From an uncultured Candidatus Binatia bacterium (GTDB lineage: Bacteria > Desulfobacterota > Binatia > UBA9968 > JAJDTQ01): 64,000 bases of DNA. The notes beneath the pieces were generated by a model that was given only the letters and a program-made list of their open reading frames with translations, was not told the DNA's origin and made no database searches. Location of the stretch: the NCBI GenBank assembly GCA_965215605.1, contig OZ244070.1, positions 2,304,001-2,368,000 on the forward strand, in the 5' to 3' direction. A program made the translations under genes and the position numbers. Below are positions 10,719-12,590 of this stretch, piece after piece; within the stretch, counting starts at the first letter, position 1, and every line of letters starts with the position of its first letter.

Positions 10719-11647
10719 TGATCGCGCCCCCTCGCCCCATTCCTATCAAGGATAGGTCTTCCATCCTGTTCGTCGAGAAGGGGCAGATCGATGTCCTCGA
10801 CGGCGCGTTCGTCGTCGTTGACAAGAACGGTGTGCGTACGCACATCCCGGTCGGGGGCCTCGCTTGTCTGATGCTTGAGCCCGGCGCCCGTATCTCTCAT
10901 GCAGCGGTGGCGCTGGCCGGGCGAGTCGGTTGCCTTTTGGTTTGGGTGGGAGAGGCCGGTGTCCGCCTCTATTCCGCAGGGCAGCCTGGGGGAGCTCGGG
11001 CGGATCGGCTTCTCCATCAAGCGCGGCTTGCACTGGACCCGGACGCCCGTCTCAACGTGGTCCGCAAGATGTACGGCATGCGTTTCGGGGAGCCCGCGCC
11101 GCAGCGTCGATCGGTCGATCAGCTACGGGGCATCGAAGGTGCACGGGTGAAAAGGCTGTACGAAGTGCTGGCAAGGCAGTATGGCGTTACGTGGAAGGGC
11201 AGGAGGTACGATCCGGGAAACTGGGACGCCGCAGACTTGGCCAATCGTTGTCTCAGCCAAGCGACCGCTTCTCTCTACGGTCTCGCCGAAGCCGCGGTTC
11301 TCGCTGCTGGCTATGCGCCCGCTATCGGTTTTCTGCATAGTGGGAAACCACAGTCATTCGTCTACGACGTGGCGGATGTGTTCAAGTTTGAAACCGTCGT
11401 GCCTATTGCGTTCAGGGTCGTTGGAGAGGCCCAACGCGGAAAGGAGCCGGCAGCCGGCGATCCGGTGGGCGAGGTCCGGCGAGGTTGTCGCGACAGCTTT
11501 CGTAGGACTGGTTTATTGAACACGCTGATTCCGAGCATAGAAGAGATGTTGGCGGCGGGAGGGCTCGATCCTCCACCGGCGCCGGAAGAAGCACAGCCGG
11601 TTGCCATTCCCGAGGTCGCAAGTGGCGATGTTGGTCATCGCGGTTAA
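10715..11647 (+). CDS. cas1: Type I-E Cas1 integrase
   Basis: [54 protein letters not shown]. Confidence 0.97.
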
Positions 11648-11924
11648 CAACGCACCGCCACGGCTTCGTGGTCGGCTGGCCTTGTGGTTGCTGGAGATTC
11701 GCGCCGGCGTCTATGTTGGGAACTATTCCCGGAGGACGCGCGAAATGATCTGGGAGCAGGTCGAGACGTACATCGAGGATGGCGATGCCATAATCGCCTG
11801 GGCCTTACCCAATGATGCAGGTTACGACTTCGACACTTGTGGGCTCAACCGACGTGTTCCGGTGGATTTGGACGGGTTGAAACTTGTCCAGTTCAGGTCT
11901 TTGACGGACGATGAGGGGCGGTAG
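11628..11924 (+). CDS. cas2: Type I-E Cas2
   Basis: [36 protein letters not shown]. Confidence 0.96.
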
Positions 11925-11951
11925 GCCCAATGTTCCAATTCCCAGCGGCTT

Positions 11952-12590
11952 GTGACCTTGACCTCAATCACTAGGCATTTGGCAAAATGCTCCCTTCACC
12001 CTGAGCGGGTGATTTTTTTGGACATCGAGACCACCGGGCTGAATCCTTACCGTGACGAATTCACTGTGATCGGATGGGCGTACGGCGGTCACGTGAACAC
12101 CATGGTCAAAGGCATGGGTTCAGACCGGCTCTGTGAAGACCTCCGACGCGCGAGGTGGTTGGTTACGTTCAATGGGGTCCGCTTCGACACGAAGTTTTTG
12201 GCGCGAGCTTTCCCTCGGATAGCCCTACCGAGTGTCCATTTCGACCTCCTGAAACTCTGCCGACGAGTTGGACTGAGGGGCGGTCAGAAGGCGATTGAAC
12301 ATGTTCTTGGAATCGGCCAGAGAGACGAAGCGACAAGACTCACTGGTGCGGAAGCGGTGGAACTTTGGCGTCGATACGTCCAAGGAGACGGTGAGGCATT
12401 GCAGAGACTCATCCTGTACAACAGAGCCGATGTCGCAGCTATGGGACCGATCCTTGATGAAATCGTGCAACGAATGGGCCTTCCGCTGGATTCATCCGTG
12501 AAGAAAGTGCGTTTTAGGGATTGGTCAGCGCCGCCCGGTTGGCAAGTGTTGCCAGACACCGGGCCCTGTTCGGCGCAGTTACGGTTTTAG
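11952..12590 (+). CDS. RNase H-like (YprB/RNase_H_2-type) DEDDy 3'-5' exonuclease
   Basis: ExoI FLDIETTG, ExoII VTFNGVRFD, GGQKAIE, ExoIII YNRAD; start uncertain; same frame as cas2. Confidence 0.85.
   Translation: MTLTSITRHLAKCSLHPERVIFLDIETTGLNPYRDEFTVIGWAYGGHVNTMVKGMGSDRLCEDLRRARWLVTFNGVRFDTKFLARAFPRIALPSVHFDLLKLCRRVGLRGGQKAIEHVLGIGQRDEATRLTGAEAVELWRRYVQGDGEALQRLILYNRADVAAMGPILDEIVQRMGLPLDSSVKKVRFRDWSAPPGWQVLPDTGPCSAQLRF

Follow-up and report, generated by a model that had tools for sequence, protein, structure and literature searches.

A stand-alone MrfB/YprB-lineage DEDDy exonuclease gene in type I-E CRISPR-Cas loci of one Candidatus Binatia genus: a candidate prespacer trimmer

Introduction

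Type I-E CRISPR-Cas systems lack Cas4. The trimming of their prespacers and the removal of the PAM are carried out by a fused DnaQ-like domain or by borrowed housekeeping exonucleases. The use of fused or recruited exonucleases in systems without Cas4 is described in PMC10284694, which reports the Cas2/DEDDh (Cas2-DnaQ) trimmer-integrase and cites the proposal that, in the I-E system of E. coli, the host enzymes DnaQ and ExoT trim Cas1-Cas2-bound prespacers in trans. Database examples of the Cas2-DEDDh protein carry Cas2 at the N-terminus and the exonuclease at the C-terminus.

MrfB (YprB) of Bacillus subtilis, a member of the RNase_H_2 family (PF13482), is described as a DNA-repair enzyme, a 3'-5' exonuclease that depends on metal, favors DNA as its substrate and has the helicase MrfA as its partner in mitomycin C repair (PMC11194089). 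Its C-terminal TPR domain (PMC11194089) is a frequent feature of COG3359 proteins (PMC3985635). The literature that we searched held no report tying PF13482, COG3359 or DEDDy nucleases to CRISPR adaptation; the supplements of the preprint 10.1101/270033 may list such a family.

Here we describe a type I-E locus in which a gene of the MrfB/YprB lineage follows cas2. We propose that it is a separate and intact exonuclease gene with tyrosine as the fifth catalytic residue, that it is an accessory of the I-E system, and that its product most likely trims prespacers held by Cas1-Cas2, a reading to which we assign about an even chance of being correct.

Results

Organization of the I-E locus

The DNA analyzed (hereafter, the window) is a 64,000-nt stretch of contig OZ244070.1 (GCA_965215605.1; positions 2,304,001-2,368,000, forward strand) from an uncultured Candidatus Binatia bacterium. 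Searches with Pfam and NCBIfam models identified the type I-E genes cas3, cse1, cse2, cas7, cas5, cas6e, cas1e and cas2e, and the accompanying array has 29-nt repeats and 32-nt spacers (Table 1), with an interval of 61 nt in 33 of 33 cases. We call this locus a-type and a second, distantly related I-E locus of the same genome b-type. The array starts about 121 nt 3' of the exonuclease ORF, in agreement with an earlier sequence-only reading of this DNA that had placed the nuclease between cas2 and the leader. Contigs from two samples of one study were identical to the window across positions 11400-12739, and an Rfam scan of positions 11000-17500 returned no family at its gathering score.

Table 1. 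Features of the a-type I-E locus, in window coordinates.
Feature	Position	Strand	Families or evidence
cas3, cse1, cse2, cas7, cas5, cas6e (type I-E effector genes)	1985..9426	+	PF18019/PF22590, PF09481, PF09485, PF09344, PF09704, PF08798
AlbA_2/HATPase_c_4 (Schlafen-like) gene, an insertion that separates cas6e from cas1	9465..10718	+	PF04326, PF13749
cas1e	10715..11647	+	TIGR03638, 362 bits
cas2e, 98 aa, TAG stop at 11922-11924	11628..11924	+	PF09707, 116 bits; TIGR01873
cas2-exonuclease spacer, 27 nt, stop-free in the cas2 frame, without SD	11925..11951	+	
Stand-alone MrfB/YprB-like DEDDy 3'-5' exonuclease (by homology), 212 aa	11952..12590	+	PF13482, 103 bits
CRISPR leader	12591..12711	+	Part nearest the repeats aligns with the spacers between cas2 and array in exonuclease-less a-type loci (G676, G648)
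CRISPR array block 1: 13 repeats of 29 nt, 32-nt spacers, and left part of the split spacer	12712..13488	+	
IS21-family element (IstA/IstB) within a spacer, 5-bp duplication GAAGC	13489..15607	-	Ends read; PF00665 and PF01695 in the identical L003 copy
CRISPR array block 2: 22 repeats	15608..16938	+	

The AlbA_2 gene gave a weak PADLOC match to pAgo-associated models. It is missing from the a-type loci of congeners G676 and G648, and two short fragments of it are present in congener G718.

The cas2-exonuclease junction

The sequence-only reading had described cas2 and the exonuclease as lying in one frame interrupted by a single TAG, and the coordinates bear this out. The cas2 ORF starts at ATG 11628 (or TTG 11601) and the exonuclease ORF runs from GTG 11952 to the TAG at 12588-12590; 11628 and 11952 are both multiples of 3, which puts the two genes in a common frame, and the intervening 27 bases encode AQCSNSQRL with zero stops. 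That reading was also right that the GTG has no convincing ribosome binding site, since no Shine-Dalgarno (SD)-like motif lies upstream of it; GGAGG-like motifs precede cas3, cse1, cse2 and cas1 in the same locus. We found no promoter-like site in positions 11400-12800. A terminator-like hairpin inside the exonuclease ORF (11996-12012) is within chance expectation and is not kept in G718.

The common frame, the stop-free gap and the GTG without SD, together with a gene order that matches the domain order of the known Cas2-DEDDh fusions, would fit the earlier suggestion of a single protein, made by amber read-through or encoded by a recently split or nascent fusion. We consider this highly improbable. 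A common frame has a one-in-three probability by chance, and we agree with the sequence-only reading that it is weak evidence; its retention in G718 reflects a spacer without indels and nothing more. In G718 both the TAG and the GTG are kept, at the same distance of 27 nt, while the linker between them drifts, with four differences of which three are at second codon positions of the cas2 frame and non-synonymous (Q>R, S>F and Q>L). Further, G718 keeps the GTG as the sole canonical in-frame start upstream of D24, the other possible starts being gone. Cas2 has a normal length and ends where its homologues end (95-149 aa among the best 120, mostly 96-107 aa), and aragorn found no tRNA with a CUA anticodon among the 53 tRNAs of the genome. 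A search with the read-through protein, a check proposed along with the fusion, gave 101 matches, none of them a Cas2-PF13482 fusion and none spanning both halves (top coverage, 74%); the six Cas2 fusions that it did recover all carry PF00929, as expected of Cas2-DEDDh. The 18 longer homologues of the exonuclease carry PF13482 only. Moreover, the b-type copies are stand-alone genes with their own SD and ATG, thousands of bases away from cas2 and with the entire array in between. On these comparisons, cas2 and the exonuclease appear to be separate genes, and the fusion and read-through readings are not supported.

Family, catalytic residues and fold of the exonuclease

The match to PF13482 covers profile positions 1-163 of 165 at a score well above the cut-off (103 versus 22 bits). 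The catalytic motifs, which had been read from the sequence as intact, are indeed present (D24-I-E26, F73-N-G-V-R-F-D79 and Y156-N-R-A-D160). They provide the four acidic DEDD residues and a tyrosine (Y156) as the fifth, and D24, E26, D79, Y156 and D160 show no variation across 19 sequences of the clade. An AF2 model (pLDDT 87.4, pTM 0.87) shows the RNase H-like alpha/beta fold of DEDD exonucleases and a complete single domain. Foldseek returned 55 PDB matches at E<=0.001, with NrnC and the exonuclease domains of family-B polymerases (PolB) on top and the NrnC structure 7mqe as the best (E 2.6e-5, TM 0.50-0.53); diDNase/NrnC was found by sequence too. These DEDDy proteins (NrnC/diDNase and the PolB proofreading domains) share the fold and the Tyr-type motif III with the window nuclease, but identity is low (13-22%) and the contexts differ.

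The nearest characterized sequence relative in the PDB is MrfB (8un9; E 3e-4, residues 14-174 aligned), of the same Pfam family. Y156 aligns with the catalytic His258 of MrfB (numbering inferred from the 33-279 construct in PMC11194089). The earlier label of a YprB-type DEDDy nuclease therefore calls for some qualification: YprB/MrfB itself is a DEDDh enzyme in the description of PMC11194089, and the clade of the window nuclease carries tyrosine at the equivalent site. MrfB also differs in having a C-terminal TPR domain and the helicase partner MrfA (PMC11194089), whereas the 212-aa protein of the window is a single domain, TPR-free and encoded in a CRISPR locus. By analogy with these relatives, the window protein may be expected to act as a DNA exonuclease.

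The likeness to the Cas2-DEDDh trimmer-integrase (as described in PMC10284694) lies in the I-E setting, a DEDD-superfamily exonuclease straight after Cas2 and the lack of Cas4. Unlike that single polypeptide, the window has two genes whose stop and start codons are conserved; its nuclease is MrfB-like (PF13482, with Tyr in motif III, Y156-x3-D160) rather than DnaQ-like (PF00929, with His), and its genome has a paralogue at the distal side of an array. True Cas2-DEDDh fusions score 94-108 bits on PF00929, whereas the window ORF gives PF13482 alone in Pfam. The PADLOC DEDDh model matched only 23 residues, and BLASTP against a Cas2-DEDDh fusion aligned only 34 residues, around motif I. By all these measures the nuclease appears to fall outside the Cas2-linked DEDDh family. 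Like the window protein, host DnaQ and ExoT are stand-alone 3'-5' exonucleases, but those are housekeeping enzymes encoded elsewhere, whereas the gene for the window nuclease belongs to the CRISPR locus and comes and goes with it.

Both copies of the gene are under purifying selection (dN/dS 0.15-0.31, dS up to 1.6): dN/dS was 0.20 for the a-type copy against G718 and 0.15-0.31 for the b-type copies, compared with 0.31 for cas6e and 0.15 for cas7. The closest relatives outside the genus (46-61% identity) are in Alphaproteobacteria and family f5, where proteins of 500-640 aa carry the exonuclease as their N-terminal domain. In their three-gene operon, the exo/DUF429-like/AAA_18-kinase fusion is accompanied by a PurA-like gene and a dCTP-deaminase-like or uncharacterized gene. 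These multidomain proteins share the C-terminal VRFRDWSAPxGW motif with the window nuclease, but no CRISPR array or cas gene lies within the 10 kb fetched around them. The extra domains raise the prospect that the window ORF is a decaying piece of such a larger fusion gene. We find this scarcely credible, as all five catalytic residues are invariant, dN/dS stays at 0.15-0.31 over divergences that reach dS 1.6, the model folds confidently as a whole domain (pLDDT 87) and the stand-alone length is kept across the genus.

Genomic distribution of the exonuclease

The paralogue in the same genome (58% identity) follows directly after the final repeat of the b-type locus. The Cas1 proteins of the two loci are 39% identical. 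This cas-array-exonuclease layout recurred in all 6 of the 6 genomes with an assembled trailer end (the same genome and congeners G556, G596, G484, G632 and G468) and on one metagenome contig of the G632 species. The a-type layout of the window is repeated in G718, and a 10.8-kb contig of about 90% identity, from a run of another study, carries it from cas1 through the array. Six congeners lack the b-type locus: the TPR and catalase genes on its flanks are still present, and cas genes and exonuclease alike are absent. G574 shows the site empty of the CRISPR island, with a toxin-antitoxin-like pair in its place. The b-type island, including the exonuclease, is thus gained or lost as a whole. 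Given the pair in this one congener, unrelated genes may have come to lie together at this site by simple co-location. We also considered whether the exonuclease and the downstream TPR gene had once been a single COG3359 gene, and rejected the idea because the TPR gene lacks similarity to the C-terminal parts of COG3359 proteins and persists without the nuclease in other congeners.

Outside the genus, the clade shows no CRISPR linkage. CRISPR or cas sequences were within 10 kb in 1 of 80 genome loci of homologues, which is congener G556, and in 2 of 80 metagenome loci, one of which belongs to a relative (41%) with a six-repeat array 3 kb away. These counts rule out PF13482 as a CRISPR-linked family at large. 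At 49-84% identity the protein database contains 40-odd entries. A plasmid collection yielded 11 distant haloarchaeal matches (37-42%) and a phage collection none. The exonuclease is missing from two of the four a-type loci of the genus (G676 and G648) and from each of the 20 a-type-like loci that we sampled in other parts of the phylum, and G788 has an orphan copy in a genome without I-E cas2. The b-type loci are syntenic and were therefore counted as one event, which brings the linkage to 9 loci in one genus and two events (a-type and b-type). The CRISPR link thus appears to be confined to one genus and to two evolutionary events. A tree built with a quick method recovered the a clade (SH-aLRT 100) and the b clade (80); it did not separate the relations among a, b and non-CRISPR sequences, and we claim no donor or order of events.

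Spacer length in arrays with and without the exonuclease

The nuclease-linked arrays are uniform, with 61-nt intervals throughout the a-type arrays (36 of 36) and in 343 of 347 cases in the b-type arrays. The only two congeners that lack the nuclease both in their a-type locus and in the whole genome, G676 and G648, have ragged spacers of 32-34 nt, with 61-nt intervals in 11 of 20 and 7 of 13 cases. Yet 18 arrays from other parts of the phylum, in loci without the exonuclease, are equally uniform (1075 of 1104 intervals of 61 nt). Precise spacer lengths therefore do not, in general, require the nuclease, and we do not count the contrast within the genus, striking as it is, as support for a trimming role. 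A stronger form of our proposal builds on this contrast: I-E systems of this genus would twice have domesticated a stand-alone MrfB-like DEDDy exonuclease to serve as their own prespacer trimmer, and would depend on it for the fidelity of spacer length. We regard this form as doubtful.

Discussion

The comparisons described above point to the nuclease as a lineage-specific accessory gene of I-E systems in this genus, with the a-type copy between cas2 and the leader and the b-type copy after the last repeat. They also agree with that part of the sequence-only reading that had proposed an independently recruited nuclease, expressed separately: the family is not DEDDh, and two paralogues accompany two I-E loci in one genus. 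The a-type gene would most likely share a transcript with cas1-cas2. Its own GTG would most likely be the translation start, possibly through re-initiation by ribosomes that have terminated at the cas2 TAG, 27 nt before it. The most likely job of its product would be to trim the 3' overhangs of prespacers on Cas1-Cas2.

A different explanation is that an independent repair or defense gene resides alongside CRISPR-Cas in variable islands and has no CRISPR role. The nearest homologues outside the genus sit in a different operon, MrfB is a DNA-repair enzyme in the description of PMC11194089, G788 has a copy but no I-E system, the b-type site varies in content (the toxin-antitoxin-like pair of G574) and the a-type locus took in the unrelated AlbA_2 gene too. 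Harder to reconcile with co-residence is the position of the a-type copy inside an operon, 27 nt after cas2 and before the leader with no SD or promoter-like site, which is difficult to reach by chance. Both paralogues of the genome, moreover, touch an I-E locus, and the b-type copy was lost with cas genes and array in six congeners. We regard co-residence as unlikely, albeit with appreciable weight. The nuclease could also serve another CRISPR step, such as the processing of Cas3 fragments in interference or priming, or the clearance of short oligonucleotides. The top structural match, NrnC, is a short-oligonucleotide nuclease, also recovered by sequence as diDNase/NrnC, and the b-type copy is joined to the array trailer rather than to cas1-cas2. 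But the literature searched offers no precedent for such a role, and the a-type place right after cas1-cas2 mirrors the Cas2-DEDDh domain order, so we rate another step as improbable. A predicted complex of two Cas1, two Cas2 and the exonuclease scored under the mark and is evidence neither way. Prespacer trimming by an accessory nuclease remains our preferred reading.

The b-type arrangement, in which a protein gene adjoins the array trailer, is unusual in itself. The gene starts about 40 nt after the last repeat and positions 12100-13300 of L003 have no promoter-like site; because of this, Cas6e could free the exonuclease mRNA from the pre-crRNA. If so, the supply of the trimmer would be coupled to transcription of the array. 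More generally, if the trimming role is true, a locus-encoded and unfused nuclease from another DEDD lineage would represent a third natural solution for prespacer trimming and a case of convergent exonuclease recruitment by the adaptation module. It would also provide a clean experimental handle, as the trimmer could be added or omitted while leaving Cas2 and the host replication genes untouched.

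Operon organization and the cas2-exonuclease junction

ORF calling and profile matches identified a complete type I-E operon in the window, with all genes on the + strand. The stop of cas2 and the GTG of the exonuclease ORF are separated by 27 bases in a shared, stop-free frame, and the ORF carries the motifs D24-I-E26, F-N-x3-F-D79 and Y156-N-x2-D160. No Shine-Dalgarno-like motif was found 5' of this GTG, while cas3, cse1, cse2 and cas1 each have one. The sequence-only reading had described this layout (TAG, frame, motifs and absent RBS) correctly in all details checked. The exonuclease ORF contains, in its first 60 nt, a terminator-like hairpin followed by seven T's (11996-12012); such hairpins are no more numerous than chance predicts, and this one is weakened in the congener G718. 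The CRISPR array (29-nt repeats, 32-nt spacers) starts about 121 nt 3' of the ORF. Two of its spacers (12985-13016 and 16634-16665) differ at only three positions, suggesting repeated sampling of one target or of related targets. One IS21-family element (IstA, 340 aa; IstB, 303 aa) interrupts both arrays of the source genome and, in the congener G596, the array of the b-type locus (described below), inserting within a spacer in the window (GAAGC duplication) and within a repeat at the second source-genome locus, L003. The AlbA_2 (Schlafen-like) gene inserted between cas6e and cas1 encodes 417 aa, has no Shine-Dalgarno motif, weakly matches pAgo-associated proteins in PADLOC and persists as two short fragments in G718.

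Coordinates of the window operon, IS21-family copies and exonuclease/DUF429-like operons
Feature	Position	Strand	Evidence
cas3	1985-4702	+	ORF and profile match
cse1	4681-6396	+	ORF and profile match
cse2	6393-6953	+	ORF and profile match
cas7	6877-7998	+	ORF and profile match
cas5	7946-8722	+	ORF and profile match
cas6e	8677-9426	+	ORF and profile match
AlbA_2/HATPase_c_4 gene, inserted	9465-10718	+	ORF and profile match
cas1e	10715-11647	+	ORF and profile match
cas2e	11628-11924, stop TAG 11922-11924	+	ORF and profile match
Exonuclease ORF, 212 codons	GTG 11952 to 12590	+	PF13482 RNase_H_2, 103 bits
IS21-family element, window	13489-15607		
IS21-family element, L003	about 9660-11780		
IS21-family element, L143	about 11900-14060		
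Exo/DUF429-like three-gene operon, L005-L013	about 9900-14000 in each		
Exo/DUF429-like three-gene operon, L144 and L146			

The shared frame had raised the possibility of a split or amber read-through Cas2-exonuclease fusion, which we now consider very improbable. Lengths among the 120 best Cas2e homologues run from 95 to 149 aa (mostly 96-107), so the window TAG is a normal Cas2 end. G718 (Cas1 97% and Cas2 95% identical) retains both the TAG and the GTG at the same 27-nt distance, yet the gap itself has changed: read in the cas2 frame, its four substitutions give Q>R, one synonymous change, S>F and Q>L. At the window's further in-frame TTG/GTG codons 5' of D24, G718 has no start codon, so GTG 11952 is the single conserved start from which the catalytic Asp would be included. 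Nor did aragorn find a tRNA with anticodon CUA among the 53 tRNAs of the 97%-complete genome; it called two tRNA-SeC (anticodon TCA; C1 259405-259499 and 2086515-2086611) and two tRNA-like sequences with odd anticodon loops. When the read-through translation (TAG=Q) was searched against a 5.8-billion-protein collection, none of the 101 matches spanned both halves (top coverage, 74%) and no Cas2-PF13482 fusion emerged. Cas2-exonuclease fusions among them were limited to six proteins of the established Cas2-DEDDh type; the four that were rescanned matched PF00929 at 94-108 bits and PF13482 at just 20-37 bits over the same stretch. Eighteen longer nuclease homologues carried PF13482 alone, bar two weak PF01612 matches. 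Window positions 11400-12739 were identical in contigs from two samples of one study, though contigs cannot reveal rare variants.

Nature of the protein

The AlphaFold2 model of the exonuclease is confident (pLDDT 87.4, pTM 0.87); the PDB structures that match it best are NrnC and family-B polymerase proofreading domains. By sequence, its PDB relatives are diDNase/NrnC and MrfB (8un9, E 3e-4). MrfB (previously named YprB) is a 3'-5' exonuclease that depends on metal and favours DNA as substrate; it is termed DEDDh, yet has a DEDDy-like fold (PMC11194089). In the alignment, Y156 falls on the second His in the MrfB motif HHNEMD, which by the numbering of the 33-279 construct is the catalytic His258 (PMC11194089); the window clade is the Tyr variant at the fifth position. 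The earlier assignment to a YprB/RNase_H_2 DEDDy type therefore holds for the PF13482 match and Tyr156 but less well for its namesake, itself termed DEDDh. The PADLOC DEDDh model matches the window exonuclease over 23 residues only and BLASTP aligns just 34 residues of a Cas2-DEDDh fusion, around motif I, which places the protein, as judged from these comparisons, outside the Cas-associated DEDDh family.

D24, E26, D79, Y156 and D160 are invariant across 19 aligned clade members, which also share a clade-specific C-terminal motif, VRFRDWSAPxGW. The dN/dS of the a-type (window-like) copy is 0.20 (window versus G718) and that of b-type pairs, from the second locus type described below, is 0.15-0.31 (dS up to 1.6). 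Values for cas7 (0.15) and cas6e (0.31) are similar, and those for cas1 and cas2 are lower (0.02-0.07). That the ORF is a relic is hardly credible.

Linkage to CRISPR-Cas loci

The source genome encodes a second exonuclease, 58% identical to the window copy, adjoining the trailer end of another I-E locus whose Cas1 is 39% identical to that of the window. In this b-type order, cas3 through cas2 are followed after about 60 nt by the IS21-interrupted array and then by the exonuclease, whose ATG is preceded by a GAGGG Shine-Dalgarno and lies about 40 nt past the last, degenerate repeat. The same layout occurs in G556, G596, G484, G632 (across two contigs) and G468 (contig beginning inside the array), and on one metagenome contig of the G632 species; the G718 b-type array reaches a contig end, and its trailer side was left out of the tally. 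The cas2-exonuclease-array layout of the window is repeated in G718. A sequencing run of a different study also yielded a 10.8-kb contig with the stretch from cas1 up to the first repeat, at 131 differences. The clade is present in 8/28 species genomes of the genus, and I-E Cas2 above the cut-off in 8/28. In the a-type loci of G676 and G648, cas2 leads directly to the leader and array, and neither the nuclease nor the AlbA_2 gene is present; the same holds for 20 a-type-like loci sampled in other parts of the phylum.

All b-type loci share downstream TPR and catalase genes. Six congeners without a b-type locus keep this flank with neither cas genes nor nuclease, indicating that the nuclease is gained and lost with the CRISPR-Cas island and is part of it rather than of the resident flank. 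In G574, the upstream and downstream TPR paralogues are only about 900 nt apart; read by eye, the empty site (L247 3515-4417) holds a small antitoxin-like ORF and then a PIN-like ORF.

Outside the genus the clade is not linked to CRISPR: CRISPR or cas genes lay within 10 kb at 1/80 genome loci, namely G556 itself, and 2/80 metagenome loci. Homologues from Alphaproteobacteria and from the Binatia family f5 (46-61% identity) form the N-terminal domain of a 500-640-aa protein with a DUF429-like middle and, in the scanned alphaproteobacterial forms, an AAA_18 kinase-like end. A PurA-like (adenylosuccinate-synthetase-like) gene follows, then a third gene that is dCTP-deaminase-like in f5 and otherwise of no known kind. 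This conserved, apparently undescribed operon, with weak PADLOC matches only (dCTPase kinase part, PDC-S44), may represent a nucleotide-based system for defence or repair. Other congeners (L119-L126; genus g1 and family f7 genomes) have approximately 700-aa frames with a PF13482-like domain (43-46% identity); these frames have no relation to CRISPR loci and might be fusions of the MrfA/MrfB type.

Possible role in adaptation

A sequence scan found no terminator-like or promoter-like site between cas2 and the nuclease, and co-transcription of the a-type gene with cas1-cas2 is probable. Translation probably begins at GTG 11952, where ribosomes that have terminated on cas2 might re-initiate. We give an even chance to the reading that the protein is a 3'-5' DNA exonuclease that would cut back prespacer overhangs in trans for Cas1-Cas2, by analogy with Cas4-less systems, in which a fused DEDDh domain has been shown to trim and recruited host exonucleases are proposed to do so (PMC10284694). 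The linkage comprises two association events in a single genus, strengthened by the involvement of two distantly related I-E variants and by one insertion inside the operon. An independent repair or defence nuclease merely sharing the island would fit the CRISPR-free homologues and an orphan copy in G788, a genome with no I-E cas2, and is possible though rather unlikely. In a quick tree the a-type and b-type copies each form a supported clade, the orphan falling within b, and the tree does not resolve the placement of these clades relative to the remainder. Another CRISPR-related role is improbable.

Spacer lengths serve only as a lead. Intervals of 61 nt made up 36/36 (a-type) and 343/347 (b-type) in nuclease-adjacent arrays, compared with ragged arrays in G676 (11/20) and G648 (7/13), whose genomes have no nuclease match at E<=1e-20 and whose spacers are 32, 33 or 34 nt long (L242 13095-14352; L243 6108-6898), but this contrast is confounded with Cas1-Cas2 divergence. 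The G648 array includes a duplicated pair of a 14-nt truncated and a 34-nt spacer. In other families of the phylum, 18 a-type-like arrays without the nuclease were as uniform (1075/1104 intervals), so uniformity is the I-E default.

Our literature search on CRISPR with PF13482, COG3359 or DEDDy adaptation found no report of the family in CRISPR loci, and the main text of a preprint on CRISPR-linked genes (10.1101/270033) does not mention it. Exonucleases serving adaptation are a known kind, as in Cas2-DEDDh fusions; new here would be a locus-encoded, unfused accessory exonuclease for adaptation, drawn from a different DEDD lineage.
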